Position numbers and translations under genes: made by a program | Assembly (NCBI GenBank): GCA_963676915.2 | Contig: CAXXVK010000039.1 | Location: 1-30,322 of the forward strand | DNA length: 30,322 nucleotides | Direction of reading: 5' to 3' | Source of the DNA: Myxococcota bacterium | GTDB lineage: Bacteria > Myxococcota_A > SURF-8 > G963663525 | Notes under the pieces: model-generated | What the model was told of the DNA's origin: nothing | The model's database searches: none | The model's input: the letters and a program-made list of their open reading frames with translations, nothing else | Shown: positions 9,691 to 26,777 of the stretch, piece by piece | Layout of the letters: each line of letters starts with the position of its first letter | Numbering within the stretch: position 1 is the first letter of the stretch

Positions 9691-10445
9691 CGTTTTTCCT
9701 CCTTTGTCAGTCGGTTCTCTAGATTTCGGGCAATCTTTTCAACGGCTTGTACAGCCGGCGAGGATGCCGGCAAATCCCACAACGATCGGCTTTGGCGGTC
9801 GAAATCGGCCAGAATATCGTCTGGTGGAACATGGCCCAAAACGTCGTAACGGTCGGGAATCGCAATGTTTTCTAAAGCATGGACGCGATTGACAACGACG
9901 AGGACGTTATCGCATCCCACCATTTCGGCAATCAGATCCAAGGTGTTCAGGCTGCGGCCCGAACCATCGATAAGTACAAGATACTTTGTCACGTTTCGTG
10001 TGACTTGCCGGTTGATTTGTTCCACACCCGCTTCGGCATCGATCAGGACAAGGGAAAACGACCGGGACAAAGCGTCGATAGCTTCTCTCAGCAGGGCATG
10101 TGCCGGACAATAACAGCCTTTTTCAAGCGTTCTTCCCATGGCCAGCAGTGCATAGCCGTCCCTTTCTTCCAGGGATTCCAACAGTCGGTAGTCCAATTCG
10201 TGCTCGATGGCGTCGCGAGCGGCTTCGTCCTGCCTGCGGGCCAGTTGGATCATGCGAGAACGGATTTCGGCTAAAGTATGTTCCGTGCGTTCTCCTATGG
10301 CTGCGAGCAGTCCACCTGCCGGATCGGCGTCGATCAGACAGAACGGCTCCGGGCGACGGTGCAATAAAGCTCGGGAAAGCAGCGCACAAAACGCGGTTTT
10401 TCCTACGCCGCCCTTGCCGCATACGGCGAGAATGGGGCGAGTCAT
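9678..10445 (-). CDS. CooC/AcsF-type (MinD/SIMIBI) nickel-insertion ATPase
   Basis: Deviant Walker A GKGGVGKT, IDADP, the CXC metal motif GCYC, and switch-II DAEAGVEQ, all hallmarks of the CooC family. Confidence 0.85.
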   Translation of the reverse strand: MTRPILAVCGKGGVGKTAFCALLSRALLHRRPEPFCLIDADPAGGLLAAIGERTEHTLAEIRSRMIQLARRQDEAARDAIEHELDYRLLESLEERDGYALLAMGRTLEKGCYCPAHALLREAIDALSRSFSLVLIDAEAGVEQINRQVTRNVTKYLVLIDGSGRSLNTLDLIAEMVGCDNVLVVVNRVHALENIAIPDRYDVLGHVPPDDILADFDRQSRSLWDLPASSPAVQAVEKIARNLENRLTKEEKRCTL

Positions 10446-19800: not shown

Positions 19801-22800
19801 ATGAAGTTACCGAAGGTTGAGGCCAGAGTGGAATCGATGGACGGCAATGCTGCCGCCGCGACCAGCGCTCACGCCATGAGTGAGGTCATTGCTATTTATC
19901 CCATCACTCCTTCTTCGCCGATGGCGGAAGCCGCCGATGAGTTTTCGGCGAAAAATCGGGAAAACATTTTCGGACAAGTCCCGAGCGTCTATGAGATGCA
20001 GAGTGAAGGCGGTGCCGTTGCGGCAATTCATGGTGCAATGTCCGCTGGAACGTTGACCACGACGTTCACGGCCAGCCAGGGATTGTTGCTGATGATCCCG
20101 AGCATGTACAAAATCGCCGGTGAAATGACACCGACGCTGTTCAATGTCACGGCCCGGACAATCTCGTCCCATGCGCTGTCGATTTTCGGCGATCATTCCG
20201 ATGTTATGGCCTGCCGTCAGACCGGTTTTTCGATGATCGCTTCCAGCGACCAGCAAGAAATCATGGACCAGGCCGCTATCGGCATGGCGGCAGCGATCAA
20301 TTCGTCCATGCCGTTCTTGCATTTCTTTGACGGATTCCGTTCCTCGCATGAGATTTCCAAGGTCGAAACGCTTTCTTACGACACGATGCGCGCTCTTATC
20401 GACATGGAAGCACTTGCCCGTTTCCGTTCCCGTGCGCTCAATCCCGATCGTCCGACCTTGAAAGGAACGGCGATGAACCCGGATATCTGGTTCCAGGGTG
20501 CGGAAGCCCGCAATCCCGTGCACGATGCCATTCCGGGACATCTGCTGAAAGTTTACGAAGCTTTCGAAAAACTTACGGGTCGGAGTTATCGCCCCTACGA
20601 ATATTACGGTCATCCCGAAGCGGAAACCGTGCTGGTGATCATGGGTAGCGGTTCCAATGTGGCGCAGGAAACCGTCGAATTCCTCAATGATGCCCGTCAA
20701 ACAAAACTCGGATTGCTGAAAGTTCGTATGTATCGCCCGTTTGAGGCGAGTATGTTCATCGACGTGCTGCCCAAAACCGTCAAACAGGTTGCGGTACTCG
20801 ATCGTACCAAAGAACCTGGAAGTGTGGGCGAGCCGCTGTACCTCGACACTGTGGGAGCCTTCAGCGAGTCTCTGCGCGCCGGAAAAATCGACCACATGCC
20901 CGCGATCCTCGGCGGACGCTACGGGTTGTCCTCGAAAGACTTTACTCCGACGCAGATCAAGTCCGTGTTCGATCACATGGATTCGAACGATCCCGCCAAC
21001 TGGATTCAGGGATTTACGGTGGGTATCGAAGACGATCTGTCCGGGCGCTCGTTGCCGGTTCAGGAAGAAATCGATACCGAGAAGAGCAGTGTCAGCCGCT
21101 TGAAATTCTGGGGACTCGGTTCCGATGGTACGGTTGGAGCGAACAAGAACTCCATCAAGGTCATCGGTGACAATTCCGATAAATACGTACAGGCGCATTT
21201 CGTCTACGACTCGAAGAAAGCCGGCGGAACGACCGTCAGCCACCTGCGGTTCTCGGACGATCCGATCCTGTCGAACTATGAAATCAACAACCCCAACTTC
21301 ATCGCCATTCACAACCGGGAATTCCTGGGTAAATACGACCTGTTGGAAGGTCTGGTCGAAGGCGGAACGGTGTTGATCAATACCGATATTCCCAATGAAG
21401 AAGTCTTTGCTTCCTTCCCGGAACAAGATCAGCGCACGATGATCGAAAAGAAAGCGAAACTATACGCAATCGACGCGCACAAAGTCGTTCGCGAGTTGGG
21501 ATTGCCGGGACGCATCAACACCACGATGCAGGCGGCATTCTTCAAGATCGCCGATATTCTTCCCAAAGACGTGTACGTTCCCGCCGTCGAGGAACGAATT
21601 GCCAAAACCTTTGCCAAAAAAGGTCAGAAGGTTGTGGACATCAACCTGGCAGCATTCCGGCGCGGCTTGGATTCCTTCGTGGAAATCCCGGTGCCTGCCA
21701 CTCCTGTGATTTCCAGCGCTGCGATTCCCGAAATTCATGTGGCCGAAGGCGACGAGGCGATTTCCGGGACGATCAACAACATTATTATACCGATCATGCA
21801 GTTACAGGGTGACCGGATTCCGGTTTCGAAGGTTCCCGCCGACGGCGTGTTCCCGACCGGAACGACCAAGTACGAAAAACGCAGCATCGCAACCTACGTT
21901 CCCAAATGGGACCAGGATTTGTGCATTCAGTGCGGATATTGTGCTTTTGCATGTCCCCACGCCGCGATTCGTCTGAAAGTTTCCAAAGCGGACGAAATTC
22001 AGATGGATGGTTACGAGACCATTCAACTCAAAGGCAAGGGTGCCGCCGAAGACGATCGCTGGCGCGTCCAGGTTTATCCCGACGACTGCACCGGCTGTGG
22101 CGTATGCGCGGAAGTCTGCTTGGGTAAAAACAAGGAAACCGGCGTAAAATCTCTCACAATGGTTCCGAAAGGCGAAGTCCTCGCGGAACATCGTGCCACC
22201 CTTCAGGAATTCGAAAGACTGCCGGAAAGCCCCGCCCAGTTCGCCAACAAGGCGCTGGTCAAGGGTGTGCAGCTTGTAGATCCGCTGTTCGAGTTCTCCG
22301 GAGCCTGCGGCGGTTGCGGCGAGACGCCGTACGTGAAACTGGCGACGCAGCTTGTGGGTGACCGAATGATTCAGGCCAACGCCACCGGCTGTTCCTCGAT
22401 CTACGGCGGAACCGCTCCGACGGTGCCGTATACCCGCAATCCTCTGGGACGCGGACCGGCCTGGGCTTCGTCTCTGTTCGAAGATAACGCCGAGTTTGGC
22501 TTGGGTATCCGGCTAGGTGTCGAATACCTCCAGGAGACCGCCTGGAACCTGCGTGGGCAGCTTCTTGAAGATTCCGGTACTACCGCCGAGCTGCGGGAAG
22601 CGCTGGAAGCCATTGCTCCGTTGGAAGAGCAGGAGAAAAGCGACGACGTCTACAAGACCTCCAAAGCGGCGGCGGATCGTGTAACCAAACTGCTGGCCGG
22701 AGCTACGGACGGTGCAGGCGAGGAATTATCCAAGCTCGCAACCTACCTTACGGATGTCAAAGTGATGATCGTCGGTGGTGACGGTTGGGCCTACGACATC

Positions 22801-23421
22801 GGATACGGCGGACTGGATCACGTCATTGCCTCGGGCAAAAACGTCAATATCCTGGTGCTCGATACCGAAGTGTATTCCAACACCGGCGGACAGCGTTCGA
22901 AATCCACCTTCATCGGCGGTGTGGCGAAATTCGCGGCCAAGGGCAAGGAAAACCACAAGAAAGACCTTGGCATGATGGCCATGAACTACCGGGACGTGTA
23001 TGTGACCTCCATTGCGTTTGGTGCGAGCATGCAGCAGACCTTGAAGGGAATGCGCGAAGCGGTGGAATACCCCGGGACGTCGTTGATCATCGCCATGTCC
23101 ACTTGTATCGAGCACGGCGTGCCGATGGCCAAGGGACCGGAGTTGAGCAAGCTGGCTGTCGATACCGGATACTGGCTGCTGTATCGTTACGATCCGCGCC
23201 GTCTGGCCGAAGGCAAAAATCCGCTCCAACTCGATTCGAAAGAGCCGAAAAAGGATGTCGCCGAATTCCTCAACCGCGAGCGTCGCTTCAAACGGTTGCT
23301 GGACGAGCGTCCCGAGCGTGGTGAAACGCTGTTCAAAGAGGCGCAACGCTTCGTTTCCAATCGCTACGGTTATTACAAGAAACTTTCCGAAATGAGCTTC
23401 GAGGATTGGATTCTTCGCTAA
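19801..23421 (+). CDS. nifJ: Pyruvate:ferredoxin (flavodoxin) oxidoreductase, single-chain
   Basis: YPITPSS, EMQSEGGA, GLGSDGTVGANK, two ferredoxin motifs (CIQCGYCAFACP, CTGCGVCAEVC), GACGGCGE, NATGCSSIYGG and TPP motif GDGWAYDIG..GLDHV. Confidence 0.97.
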   Translation: MKLPKVEARVESMDGNAAAATSAHAMSEVIAIYPITPSSPMAEAADEFSAKNRENIFGQVPSVYEMQSEGGAVAAIHGAMSAGTLTTTFTASQGLLLMIPSMYKIAGEMTPTLFNVTARTISSHALSIFGDHSDVMACRQTGFSMIASSDQQEIMDQAAIGMAAAINSSMPFLHFFDGFRSSHEISKVETLSYDTMRALIDMEALARFRSRALNPDRPTLKGTAMNPDIWFQGAEARNPVHDAIPGHLLKVYEAFEKLTGRSYRPYEYYGHPEAETVLVIMGSGSNVAQETVEFLNDARQTKLGLLKVRMYRPFEASMFIDVLPKTVKQVAVLDRTKEPGSVGEPLYLDTVGAFSESLRAGKIDHMPAILGGRYGLSSKDFTPTQIKSVFDHMDSNDPANWIQGFTVGIEDDLSGRSLPVQEEIDTEKSSVSRLKFWGLGSDGTVGANKNSIKVIGDNSDKYVQAHFVYDSKKAGGTTVSHLRFSDDPILSNYEINNPNFIAIHNREFLGKYDLLEGLVEGGTVLINTDIPNEEVFASFPEQDQRTMIEKKAKLYAIDAHKVVRELGLPGRINTTMQAAFFKIADILPKDVYVPAVEERIAKTFAKKGQKVVDINLAAFRRGLDSFVEIPVPATPVISSAAIPEIHVAEGDEAISGTINNIIIPIMQLQGDRIPVSKVPADGVFPTGTTKYEKRSIATYVPKWDQDLCIQCGYCAFACPHAAIRLKVSKADEIQMDGYETIQLKGKGAAEDDRWRVQVYPDDCTGCGVCAEVCLGKNKETGVKSLTMVPKGEVLAEHRATLQEFERLPESPAQFANKALVKGVQLVDPLFEFSGACGGCGETPYVKLATQLVGDRMIQANATGCSSIYGGTAPTVPYTRNPLGRGPAWASSLFEDNAEFGLGIRLGVEYLQETAWNLRGQLLEDSGTTAELREALEAIAPLEEQEKSDDVYKTSKAAADRVTKLLAGATDGAGEELSKLATYLTDVKVMIVGGDGWAYDIGYGGLDHVIASGKNVNILVLDTEVYSNTGGQRSKSTFIGGVAKFAAKGKENHKKDLGMMAMNYRDVYVTSIAFGASMQQTLKGMREAVEYPGTSLIIAMSTCIEHGVPMAKGPELSKLAVDTGYWLLYRYDPRRLAEGKNPLQLDSKEPKKDVAEFLNRERRFKRLLDERPERGETLFKEAQRFVSNRYGYYKKLSEMSFEDWILR

Positions 23422-23447
23422 ACCGCTCTTTCACTCTTACGTTTCTT

Positions 23448-23476
23448 ACGCCCCCTTTTCGAAGGGGGCGTTTTTT
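23448..23476 (+). terminator. Intrinsic terminator of PFOR
   Basis: ACGCCCCCTT-TTCG-AAGGGGGCGT followed by a T-run, 26 bp after the stop. Confidence 0.92.
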
Positions 23477-23680
23477 GTGGGAAAATCGTTGGCTCAGTGG
23501 TTTTCACGTTTTACGCGATGGAATAGGATGCAATCCCCGTCCGTCAAAGTGGCGATCACGATTGTGTAAATCAGGGAAACAAAGCATCATTTAAAAATAC
23601 GAACAATACAGCCGAAAATTTCATGTTCGAAAAGATAGGGGAGTGTCGAAAAGAGGCAGGAAAAATCAAGAAGAACAAAT

Positions 23681-23705
23681 AAAAAAGGCCGGGAAAACCC
23701 GGCCT
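23681..23705 (-). terminator. Intrinsic terminator (candidate sRNA and probably leuS read-through)
   Basis: Minus strand AGGCCGGG-TTTT-CCCGGCCT followed by TTTTT. Confidence 0.88.
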
Positions 23706-23766
23706 GAAAGAGCAGCTACTCTGCCACTTGGGGGGGACGGTGGGACTCTAAAGCAGCTACCCTCTG
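23681..23766 (-). ncRNA. Candidate ~86-nt small regulatory RNA with a C-rich apical loop
   Basis: Bounded by a sigma70-like promoter and a terminator. An 11-bp stem (23753-23763 with 23709-23719) pairs fully only on the minus strand (3 G-U). Inner CCAC/GTGG stem with loop CGUCCCCCCCAA. Confidence 0.65.
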
Positions 23767-23772
23767 AGATTG

Positions 23773-23801
23773 ATTGTGCCGTGGGGCGTGACTTTTGTCA
23801 A
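23773..23801 (-). promoter_or_regulatory. Sigma70-type promoter of the candidate sRNA
   Basis: Perfect TTGACA (23796-23801), 17 bp, CACAAT (23773-23778) on the minus strand. Confidence 0.65.
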
Positions 23802-23894
23802 GTATAATAGACGAAAATTCCCGAACTTTGCCCTAAAAGTCCGTAGCAAAGGTTTTCCGTGGCGACTGACACGGAAAACCTGACGCGGTTAGTG

Positions 23895-26423
23895 TCATTT
23901 TACCACGAAATTGACCAGCCGCCCCGGAACGTAGATCTCCTTTTTTAAATCGCCTTTCTCAAGGTAGGACATCACTTTTTCGTCCTGCTTGGCGATTTCC
24001 AGCACGTCTTTCGCTTCGGCATCCGCCGGAACCTTGATTTCGGTCCGCCGCTTGCCGTTGATCTGTATAGCGATCGGAATCAGGCTTTCGGTGAGCCACT
24101 GTTCGTCGTATGTGGGCCAGGATGCATAGGTCAGGATTTCGTCGTGACCGAGACATTGCCAGAGTTCTTCGCCGATGTGTGGCGCAAACGGGGTAAGCAG
24201 CTTGACGAAATCTTCCATTGCCGTTTTCGCCAGCGTTTCCATTTTGTAGGCGTCGTTGGTGAATTCCATCATTTTCGCAATGGCGGTGTTGAAGCGCAAT
24301 TCATCGAGTTCTTCAGTCACCTTGGCGATGGTCCGATGCAGCAGGCGGTTCATGTCCTCGGTGGGTTCTTCATCGACAATCGCCGGGTTGACTTCGCCGT
24401 TCTTGATGAACAGCCGCCATACGCGACCCAAGAAACGGTAAACACCCTCGATGCCTTCTTCGGTCCACACCACATCGCGGTCCAGCGGCCCCATGAACAT
24501 CTCGTACATTCGCATAGCGTCCGCACCGTAGCGTTCGATTACGTCGTCCGGATTGACCACGTTGTAACGAGATTTGCTCATTTTTTCCATTTTGACATCC
24601 AACGGCTCATTGGTTTCTTTGAGCACGTAGCCGTTGCCGTCGGAGTCTCGCTGTACCTCGTGGGGATAGTGGTACTTTCCGCGTTCGTCCCGGTAGGAAT
24701 ACGCCAGCACCATGCCCTGATTGACGAGTTTCTGGAACGGCTCTTTCGTGTGCGCCCATCCGGCGTCGAAAAGCACTTTGTGCCAGAAACGAGCGTACAG
24801 CAGGTGCAACACCGCGTGTTCCGCACCACCAAGGTACAGATCCACCGGCATCCAGTATTTTTCCTTGTCCTTGTCGTAAGGAGCGAGATCGTTGAACGGA
24901 TCGAGGTAACGCAGGTAATACCAGCAACTTCCCGCCCATTGCGGCATGGTATTGGTTTCACGTTTGGCGGGTTTTCCTGTTTCGGGATCGGTGGTTTGTA
25001 CCCATTCCTCAGCCCGGGCCAGTGGCGGACGCCCATCCTCGGTGGGACGGTATTCGTCCAACTCGGGAAGCAGAACGGGAAGATCCTCGGCCCGCAACGC
25101 TTTGACGGTACCATCTTCCAGCTCGATTACCGGGAAAGGCTCGCCCCAGTAACGTTGCCGGGAGAACAACCAGTCGCGCAGACGATAGTTGACCGTCGCT
25201 TTGCCCACGCCCTGTTCTTCGAGCATCGCAATGATTTTCTTTTTGGCTTCCGGGGTGGAAAGACCGGTCAGAGGACCGGAATTGATGCTTGTGCCGTTGC
25301 CGGTAAACCCAAGAGATTCCTCACTTTTCGGAGCTTCGACGACCAGTTTGACCGGAAGGTCGAACTTTTGGGCGAATTCCAGGTCGCGGGTGTCGTGGGC
25401 GGGAACGGCCATGATCGCTCCTGTTCCGTAACCCATCAGCACGTAATCGGCGACCCAGATCGGGATCTGCTCGCCATTGACGGGATTCACCGCATAAGCA
25501 CCAGTAAAGACACCGGTTTTCTCGCGCTCCTCGTCCATCCGGTCTTTGTCGCTTTTTTGTGCAGCCTCCGCCACATAGTCAGCAACGGCGTCCCTCTGTT
25601 CGTCGGAGACGATGTCGTTTACGAAGGGATGTTCGGGGGAAAAGACGCAGTAGGTTGCACCGAACAGCGTATCCGGGCGGGTGGTGAACACGGTAAAGCG
25701 CTTGTCGGTGCTGTGGATATCGAACACGACATCCGCGCCGGTGGATTTACCGATCCAGTTGCGCTGCATTTCCTTTACGCCGTCGGTCCAGTCCAGCAAG
25801 TCGAGATCTTCGAGCAGACGTTCGGCATACGCTGTGATTTTCAGCATCCATTGCTTCATTTTGCGCTTTTCGACCGGATCGCCGGTTTCGACGTAGCAGC
25901 CGTCTTTGACCTCTTCATTGGCCAGAACGGTTCCCTGGGCCGGGCACCAGTTGACATCCACCTCGGCTTGATAGGCCAGTCCCGCTTCGTACAATTTCAG
26001 GAAAATCCATTGGGTCCAGCGATAGTATTCGGCGCTGGAGGTGTCGATTTCGCGGTCCCAGTCGTAGGAAAAGCCTAGTTTTTTGATCTGGCTTCGGAAA
26101 TGATCCGTATTCTTTTTGGTGGTGATCGCCGGATGCTGGCCGGTGCGCATGGCGTGGCGCTCGGCGGGTAGACCGAAGGCATCCCAGCCCATCGGGTGCA
26201 GGACATTGAAACCTTGCATTCTTTTGTAACGGCTGACGATATCCGTTGCAGTGTATCCCTCGGGGTGACCGACGTGCAGACCGTCACCGGAAGGATAAGG
26301 GAACATGTCCAATACGTAATATTTAGGCTTGGAAGGATCTTCCGTGCACTTGAAAATCTTGTTTTCTTCCCAGAATTTCTGCCATTTCGCTTCGATTTCA
26401 CCTGGGCGATAGCGTTCGTCCAT
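23895..26423 (-). CDS. leuS: Leucine--tRNA ligase
   Basis: MFPYPSG.GLHVGH (HIGH), [10 protein letters not shown], editing-domain [10 protein letters not shown] and [28 protein letters not shown]. Start ATG 26423 after GAGGGG. Confidence 0.97.
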
Positions 26424-26777
26424 GCCTGTTTCCCCTCGGTTTGAATGCGTTCGTCGCGGCGAGAAGGTTGGGTGGAGAATTCCAGACTCCCATAAAGCCG
26501 CGATACGATGCGGTTTTTTCACGGGGCGGAAAAGGTTCCCGTTCCCCAAACAATCTTAAAACTATTAGCCGGAAACCAGCCAAAGATCAACCGTTGGAAC
26601 CGCCTTTCTCCTCGCATCACAGGCTTTTTCGAAAAAAAACACTCTGACTCTTGAATCCAAGGACGTGGACGATTAGAGTGGGAGCGTTTGGTAATGTTGC
26701 ATCGCGTCAAAAGAGATGGCGTGTTTTCGTAACGTATCCTTCTTCTGTGTCAACCGTGACGAAAGCGGTACCTTTCG

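Follow-up and report, generated by a model that had tools for sequence, protein, structure and literature searches.

The minus strand of a Myxococcota contig (CAXXVK010000039.1, assembly GCA_963676915.2; its 30,322 nucleotides (nt) were analysed as a whole and are called the window here) carries, between the genes leuS and PFOR, a predicted small RNA (sRNA) gene. The sequence supports an independent, so far unannotated gene with its own promoter and terminator. Conservation is the strongest argument that we are dealing with a conserved gene and not with a chance arrangement: judged by sequence comparison, the element belongs to an sRNA family that occurs throughout a single order-level lineage of uncultured Myxococcota and not outside it. 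This predicted family is previously uncatalogued and of the already known C-rich-loop kind, with an unusually constrained tip that sits on three interchangeable scaffolds. As to function, we lean slightly towards a trans-acting, Hfq-independent sRNA whose C-rich loop would pair with G-rich sites in mRNAs. Ten genomes of the order were available (G000 to G009); G000 is the genome of the window, and G000 and G001 together make up its genus.

Signals and fold of the predicted gene

The elements of the putative gene are as follows (positions in the window).

23796..23801, minus strand: −35 box TTGACA, the exact consensus sequence
23773..23778, minus strand: −10 box CACAAT after a 17-nt spacer, consensus match 10/12
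23766, minus strand: predicted transcription start, placed about 7 nt past the −10 box from promoter geometry
23750..23765, minus strand: 5' arm of the basal helix P1 in the minimum free energy (MFE) fold, with compensatory changes at pairs 7-54, 9-52 and 11-50 (core alignment numbering)
23719..23753, minus strand: 35-nt apical module CUUUAGAGUCCCACCGUCCCCCCCAAGUGGCAGAG, near-invariant across copies
23744..23749, minus strand: AGAGUC, made up of a bulged A, the G that forms a G-C pair, and AGUC on the 5' side of the internal loop, from the MFE fold; these bases never vary
23740..23743, minus strand: CCAC, 5' side of the apical stem in the fold, with its 4 pairs retained in 14/14 aligned copies
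23728..23739, minus strand: 12-nt apical loop CGUCCCCCCCAA from computed unpaired probabilities, with a C7 run (23730-23736) as candidate seed
23724..23727, minus strand: GUGG, 3' side of the apical stem in the MFE fold
23707..23723, minus strand: 3' arm of P1 (CAGAG and UAGCUGCUCUUU), from the MFE fold and covariation
23680..23705, minus strand: intrinsic terminator from a terminator scan, with a GC-rich 8-bp stem (23705-23686), a UUUU loop and a U6 tail

A first-pass annotation, made from the letters of the window without database searches, had pointed out most of these signals. The arrangement TTGACA-17-CACAAT is present where it had been placed, and it is the only promoter-like site between 23300 and 24000 (1, against 0.4 ± 0.7 in shuffled sequences). 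The terminator with its U-run corresponds to the stem at 23705-23686 and the six U residues that follow it. The annotation had also noted the lack of an evident start codon, and the unit of about 87 nt indeed contains no AUG.

The proposed stem, AGGGUAGCUGC against GUAGCUGCUCU, pairs at 11/11 positions, including three G-U wobbles, exactly as described and located. It turned out to be part of a larger hairpin of 21 pairs and 59 nt (23765-23707) with a 12-nt loop. In this hairpin, a bulged A and an asymmetric 4-nt loop (AGUC) precede the CCAC/GUGG stem that closes CGUCCCCCCCAA; this short stem around a C7 loop (23739-23728) had likewise been recognized. On the minus strand, a 93-nt unit folds with −40.1 kcal/mol (z = −5.03), a value equalled by 0 of 200 shuffles. 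The plus strand reaches only z = −2.21, which 5 of 200 shuffles equal, and does not form the long hairpin. The fold is thus strand-specific, as had been claimed: the G-U pairs suit the minus strand only. The C-rich loop was expected to be exposed, and the mean predicted probability of being unpaired is 0.96–1.00 for the C-run in all 15 copies of the element that we collected.

Distribution and copy number

A BLAST search of the window's own genome gave one full copy and a second match that covers only 39 nt of the terminator. Among 40 relatives, BLAST matched all nine other genomes of the order and none of the 31 other genomes of the phylum. A covariance model of the core found the element in 10/10 genomes of the order and in 0/141 other phylum genomes; weak relatives may have escaped this search, since its filters were stricter and only 36 first-look candidates were scored in each genome. 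The exact core pattern occurs in eight stretches of a genome collection (185,579 species according to the tool description), all of them from metagenome-assembled genomes (MAGs) of the same group, labelled as uncultured Myxococcota, Myxococcales or 'Deltaproteobacteria'. Three stretches were retrieved from a metagenome collection; one is a duplicate, which leaves two further contigs (meta27 and meta28). A viral contig collection contained no match to the core pattern. G002 carries four copies and each of the other nine genomes of the order one; with the two metagenome contigs, this makes 15 distinct copies.

One tip on three scaffolds

When these homologues were compared, the structure proved to be conserved with compensatory changes, which answers the question of conservation that the first-pass annotation had raised. 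The core alignment comprises 14 copies (the 11 from outside G002 and three from G002), while the fourth copy of G002 (G002d) stands outside it. Unit length varies from 62 to 118 nt in the relatives, and three architectures can be distinguished. A hairpin followed by a separate terminator hairpin is found in G000, G001, G003, G006, G008 and meta27. A single rod of about 45 pairs, with the U-run directly at its base, is found in G004, G005, G007, G009 and meta28. The copies of G002 are short rods of 62–80 nt.

The tip is common to all of these architectures. Outside G002, 10 of the 11 copies have the same 35-nt module, and the remaining one, in G003, differs by a single U-to-C change. In all 14 aligned copies, a block of 16 consecutive positions never changes, and the pairs of the CCAC/GUGG stem are kept in every one of them without any covariation. 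For comparison, the signal recognition particle (SRP) RNA from nine of the same genomes has 37 invariant columns out of 100, and no invariant run in it exceeds 8 nt; the tip is thus under tighter constraint than a housekeeping RNA. An unpaired run of 6–8 C residues is present in all 15 copies. G002d has a different apical stem and different loop flanks, yet it retains a C6 run in the loop, which singles out the C-run as a selected feature.

The basal helices vary while pairing is kept. With the structure named above, 82.1% of the cells of the 14-copy alignment pair, compared with 34–50% when the partners are slid against each other; the unpaired cells belong mainly to the three divergent G002 copies. 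Eight pairs of the basal helices are changed on both sides, and the covariation score was reached by 3 of 500 shuffles. G-U pairs are frequent (pair 12-49 is G-U in 8 of 13 distinct rows, pair 15-46 is U-G in 10 of 13), and since they would be A-C on the opposite strand, they fix the strand of the RNA. RNAalifold predicted 42 pairs for the five long-rod copies, 15 of them with compensatory double changes. Applied to all 14 core sequences, it kept the 4-bp apical stem alone, because the three G002 copies pair in another register. Support for the helices was therefore taken from the count on the named structure and from the rod-only alignment.

The signals around the helices are conserved as well. 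TTGACA is exact in 13/15 copies and differs at one position in the other two (TTGACT, TTGTCA). A −10-like hexamer, defined by A at position 2 and T at position 6, follows 16–18 nt past TTGACA in 13/15 copies; in G006 and G002c, TTGACA is present and the hexamers TTATAA and TAAAAA fail the rule at the final T alone. Between the −10 box and the conserved core lie 13–19, 26 or 42–47 nt; this spacing tracks the architecture, so that the promoter always lies just before whichever basal helix exists. A U-run follows the last helix in 14/15 copies; G002c has none and may be a decaying copy. The sequence between promoter, helices and terminator signals is not conserved. No open reading frame (ORF) is common in strand or frame to the 14 copies checked, and one copy has no ORF at all.

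Genomic context

The gene upstream of the unit is leuS only in G000 and G001, that is in 2/15 copies. G003 and G007 have a nadD-like cytidylyltransferase gene at the flank, with or without an NAD synthase gene. Elsewhere we find genes for radical-SAM, LAM-like and Fer4/CCG proteins, VKOR-DsbA, LpxB, GreA, GrpB and others. At five loci of one family (f4: L005, L006, L007, L009 and L028), a convergent gene of about 190 amino acids (aa) with a HAMP domain lies downstream, with differing upstream neighbours. These loci are closely related, so the common neighbour may reflect plain synteny.

These contexts bear on two explanations that would deny the element the status of an independent RNA gene. 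It might be the 3' untranslated region (UTR) or terminator region of leuS, an sRNA derived from that 3' UTR, or a leader that acts in cis on a gene downstream. The position invites this idea, since only 94 nt separate the sRNA from the leuS stop codon upstream of it on the same strand, and some read-through is conceivable because the hairpin that follows leuS has a weak U tail:

23851..23880, minus strand: hairpin past the leuS stop with an 11-bp stem and a weak U tail, read from the sequence; it lies between leuS and the sRNA promoter and was missed by the terminator scan, as its tail contains too few U residues

However, the linkage to leuS is confined to one genus, which argues that the unit is neither the 3' UTR of leuS nor a leader. 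A TTGACA-type box accompanies every copy, 14/15 units end in a terminator, and the next gene in the window, PFOR, is convergent, leaving nothing downstream for a leader to lead. We consider this explanation very improbable. It could also be argued that the conserved entity is DNA: a palindrome bound by a protein, a site of recombination or a small mobile repeat. The element is an imperfect palindrome, and its four copies in G002 lie in unrelated contexts. On the other hand, it is single-copy in 9/10 genomes of the order, its many G-U pairs function on one strand only while the plus strand folds poorly, and its promoter and terminator signals are oriented. Neither direct repeats nor transposase-type neighbours were seen at the loci, and the viral contigs gave no matches. 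A DNA-level element is therefore scarcely credible.

Relation to known RNAs

A search of the whole window against Rfam 15 with gathering scores gave no match, so the comparison with catalogued RNAs that the first-pass annotation had suggested did not lead to a known family. In E-value mode, 12 matches at E ≤ 10 were returned for 23400-23920. Those over the RNA are SorY with 16 bits (cut-off 111), SorX with 15.6 (46.6) and c4-a1b1 with 13 (46.7); plus-strand rows over the terminator stem are STnc430 (15.5) and cHP (14.1). These sub-threshold rows are terminator-like noise. Rfam contains a 6C family, which is absent from the matches at E ≤ 10 in this region; the element also has one C-rich loop only, and identity with 6C was rejected. 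Identity with sX13 was rejected as well (no Rfam row, different architecture). SRP RNA (RF00169) and 6S RNA (RF00013) were dismissed because both families match other loci of G000 above cut-off, with 69.1 and 68.2 bits for SRP RNA and 61.3 bits for 6S RNA. There are two SRP RNA genes in G000 (C1:16982-17079 and C27:88814-88911) and two in G001, and one in the other matching genomes of the order. The element resembles 4.5S SRP RNA in being rod-like, in its strongly conserved apical module, in being single-copy in 9/10 genomes of the order and in being found in 10/10; its apical motif is unrelated to those of SRP and 6S RNA.

The first-pass annotation had been loosely reminded of Pxr from Myxococcus xanthus. 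This resemblance did not hold: a genome search with RF01812 came back empty at E ≤ 1, and the window scan had no row for it at E ≤ 10, which rules out identity with Pxr. Both are small RNAs of Myxococcota, Pxr being regulatory, and the host of Pxr is described without hfq (PMC5684412). The same source describes Pxr as three stem-loops directly downstream of the NtrC-like gene pxrR (PMC5684412). The present element differs by its one or two helices, its sigma-70-type promoter and its unrelated neighbours (leuS, PFOR and others).

The closest parallels in design are found outside the phylum. The 6C sRNA of Mycobacterium, Streptomyces and Corynebacterium is, according to PMC6486639, small and terminator-ended, has loops with at least six C residues, and binds G-rich ribosome-binding sites (RBSs) such as AGGGGGG through them without chaperones. 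It acts without Hfq or ProQ (PMC6486639), as may the present RNA, in whose host no Hfq was detectable. The two differ in phylum and in the number of C-loops (two in 6C, one here), and the invariant internal loop and the long-rod variants described above have no counterpart in 6C. The sX13 RNA of Xanthomonas also exposes C-rich apical loops, which pair with motifs of at least four G residues near translation starts. According to PMC3771888, its 4C loops and the 4G motifs of the targets are required, Hfq is dispensable, and such G-rich motifs lie at the RBS of a minority of genes; RNAIII of Staphylococcus aureus and HPnc5490 of Helicobacter pylori are named there too. Unlike our element, sX13 is built from three stem-loops carrying 4C/5C motifs, its 5' end is unstructured, and its targets are experimentally known (PMC3771888). 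A full-text search for the 17-nt core in three forms, and a search by words, returned no publication on the RNA described here.

Possible mode of action

The design shared with 6C and sX13, together with the existence of candidate G-run substrates, led us to choose pairing in trans between the C-loop and G-rich sites as the likeliest mechanism. The stand-alone gene would be transcribed from its near-consensus sigma-70-type promoter and transcription would end at the intrinsic terminator. The RNA would then fold into a rod or hairpin, with basal helices that are free to vary as long as pairing is kept and a fixed tip, where a small internal loop and a stem of 4 bp lead up to the 12-nt loop that presents seven cytosines. 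We infer that the exposed C-run and its flanks could pair, without the help of Hfq, with single-stranded G-rich mRNA, typically at RBSs with a G-run. Pairing at an RBS would block translation or alter the stability of the mRNA. No Hfq was found in G000, a 90.8%-complete genome.

C7 runs are rare in G000, whose 5.18 Mb (52% GC) contain 59 C7 and 75 G7 positions. Such G7/C7 homopolymer runs are strongly depleted genome-wide, C7 runs being about six-fold below the expectation from base composition by an arithmetic estimate. Runs of at least six G residues are over-represented in the intergenic fraction, which makes up 11% by crude gene calls (116 of 638 runs). Candidate substrates do occur: the usual RBS is AAGGAG(G), but GGGGGA within 30 nt upstream of the start was counted for 50 of 3875 crude gene starts. 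A G6–G7 run at the position of the RBS is found in a few genes, which encode DnaK/Hsp70, a LexA-like repressor together with the Y-family polymerase next to it, a protein with an FGE-sulfatase domain, lipoprotein paralogues and a 509-aa protein without Pfam match. Among the G-run RBSs of G000 are those at C67:95363 (dnaK-like), C6:102300 (lexA-like), C53:98545 and C24:105279.

Several results weigh against this mechanism. Across the ten genomes, no target was found that is conserved together with the sRNA. In none of them are 14-mers complementary to the loop (up to two mismatches) in excess over a reversed control, the counts for G000 being 13+9 against 12+9. G6 and G7 runs are not enriched before crude gene starts, and G6 runs show no positional peak there. 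The G6 RBS of dnaK is kept only in G000 and G001 among nine orthologue loci, the lipoprotein family with a G6 RBS occurs in 2/10 genomes, and the cassette with the G7-RBS LexA-like gene is present in only four genomes of two families. A pairing seed would account for some 12–16 invariant nt, but not obviously for a module that stays unchanged over all 35 nt, with an internal loop and a 4-bp stem for which none of the 14 copies shows covariation. The tip is also held more tightly than SRP RNA. Finally, the promoter and terminator on which the putative gene depends are consensus matches only.

The first-pass annotation had named leuS as a possible partner. We do not retain it as a specific one, because its GAGGGG would give only four G-C pairs and leuS is a neighbour only within the genus. 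Two other kinds of target were rejected. The single perfect 14-nt complement of the loop in G000 (C12:82825-82838, minus strand, with five further pairs) falls into Gly-rich codons (GLGGTGLG) for the ATPase domain in a PAS histidine kinase of 603 aa and has no orthologous place in G001. It is most likely a chance match, and since only 2 of 288 coding G6 runs share this Gly-rich motif, targeting of the kinase family is not indicated. The cell's own 16S, 23S, SRP and 6S RNAs show complementarity within the range of random genomic segments.

A few observations may serve as leads. A stricter search with the 12-mer TTGGGGGGGRYG, G-U pairs allowed, gave 17 non-self sites in the ten genomes against one for the reversed control. 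Two of these sites are perfect complements of 16 nt and 14 nt to the loop and lie in intergenic, terminator-ended units of G008 and G006 (genus g6), at C175 ~450-461 (L159) and C86 ~10306-10317 (L152), respectively. There is no homology between the two units, and some 50 nt further downstream the unit of G008 carries another G6 site. By an arithmetic estimate, chance alone would give about 0.03 occurrences of a 16-mer in one genome and about 0.3 in ten, and the site numbers fail a correction for ten genomes. These units may be targets or sponge RNAs; they are leads only, uncounted as evidence.

The region C6:102300-105058 of G000 encodes the LexA-like S24 repressor and, next to it, the Y-family (impB/mucB/samB) polymerase; both genes have G6–G7 RBSs. 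The repressor, like its cassette as a whole, is 95–98% identical in G000, G001, G004 and G005, whereas the core LexA is only about 40% identical. Near-identity across two families makes this look like a recently shared, mobile SOS-type cassette. The core lexA gene has no G-run site at its RBS. Two other intergenic hairpins of G000 carry C6–C7 loops, one at C60:196882 with a U-run after it and one at C14:14429; they may be further C-loop sRNAs or terminators.

Protein binding as an alternative

The invariance of the tip could also be understood if the element is a real small RNA whose main job is to bind protein, as a component of a ribonucleoprotein (RNP) or as a sponge, with the tip as recognition surface. 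The same features that a pairing seed leaves unexplained speak for this: a module that is identical in nearly all non-G002 copies, a CCAC/GUGG stem that never covaries, and a conservation beyond that of SRP RNA. Even so, none of the loci of the RNA shows a linked gene for an RNA-binding protein. Y RNAs are bound by the Ro (TROVE) protein, whose gene usually lies beside the RNA; no Ro/TROVE protein was found in G000 (90.8% complete), and identity with a Y RNA was rejected. Overall we regard protein binding as the main function, the leading alternative to pairing, as rather unlikely.

The idea can be made concrete. The consensus kink-turn (K-turn) consists of a C-stem, a 3-nt bulge, tandem sheared G-A/A-G pairs and a non-canonical stem. 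The sequence of the tip permits a similar geometry, with C13-G48, a bulge UUUA and the pairs G18-A47 and A19-G46, which an L7Ae-type protein might read. G000 encodes a 201-aa fusion of YlxR (DUF448) and Ribosomal_L7Ae between nusA and infB (C27:74245-74487; ORF L130:1426-2031, minus strand), and an L7Ae domain is found in 9/10 genomes of the order compared with 17/141 other genomes of the phylum. In G002, the only genome of the order without this domain, the three main copies have lost the A-G pair (UUUAGAU/CAUAC). Against this stand a bulge of 4 nt instead of the canonical 3 and bases that are invariant, so that covariation cannot test the K-turn. The 17 phylum genomes that have an L7Ae protein without this RNA indicate that the protein is not specific to it. 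The correlation in G002 is a single data point from a 95%-complete genome, and the fourth copy there retains UUUAGAG/CAGAG. The case for a protein platform is thin, since it depends on a single genome and on a bulge whose 4 nt are non-canonical, and covariation lends it no support. A further proposal would make the RNA more than an antisense regulator, namely a subunit or decoy of a lineage-specific RNP; its 35-nt tip, conserved more tightly than domain IV of SRP RNA in the same genomes, would be a K-turn-like kink with a poly-C loop, read by, for example, the YlxR-L7Ae protein. This seems to us quite doubtful. If it were true, it would tie an order-specific RNA to the machinery of transcription and translation initiation.

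Significance

To our knowledge, riboregulation in Myxococcota is almost unexplored apart from Pxr, and the lineage studied here is known only from MAGs. The predicted family provides this lineage with a cleanly defined RNA gene that has a promoter, a structure and a terminator, is lineage-universal and comes in 15 natural variants. As the tip is constrained and the helices vary, these variants already separate the parts that matter. Should pairing with G-run RBSs be true, Hfq-free regulation by C-loops and G-motifs, a mode already known from Actinobacteria, Xanthomonas, Staphylococcus and Helicobacter, would reach another phylum, and G000 would possess a small G-run-RBS regulon including DnaK and the SOS-type cassette. 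Should a protein recognize the tip, a new RNP would be indicated. In either case, the covariance model can be used for annotation of the family, which is a candidate for Rfam.

Neighbouring genes in the window

Both flanking genes had been identified correctly from the letters and are confirmed by NCBIfam equivalog matches. PFOR is the ORF 19801-23421 (TIGR02176, 1570.9 bits), and the terminator scan found a terminator of its own at 23448-23471. The minus-strand ORF 26549-23895 is leuS (leuS_bact, 1159.3 bits), whose start region reads GAGGGGAAACAGGC-ATG. The longest leuS ORF begins with TTG at 26549, the match to the leuS model does not begin until residue 47, and GAGGGGA stands in front of an ATG at 26423. 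The actual start of leuS is probably this ATG at 26423 (26421-26549 of the window, minus strand).

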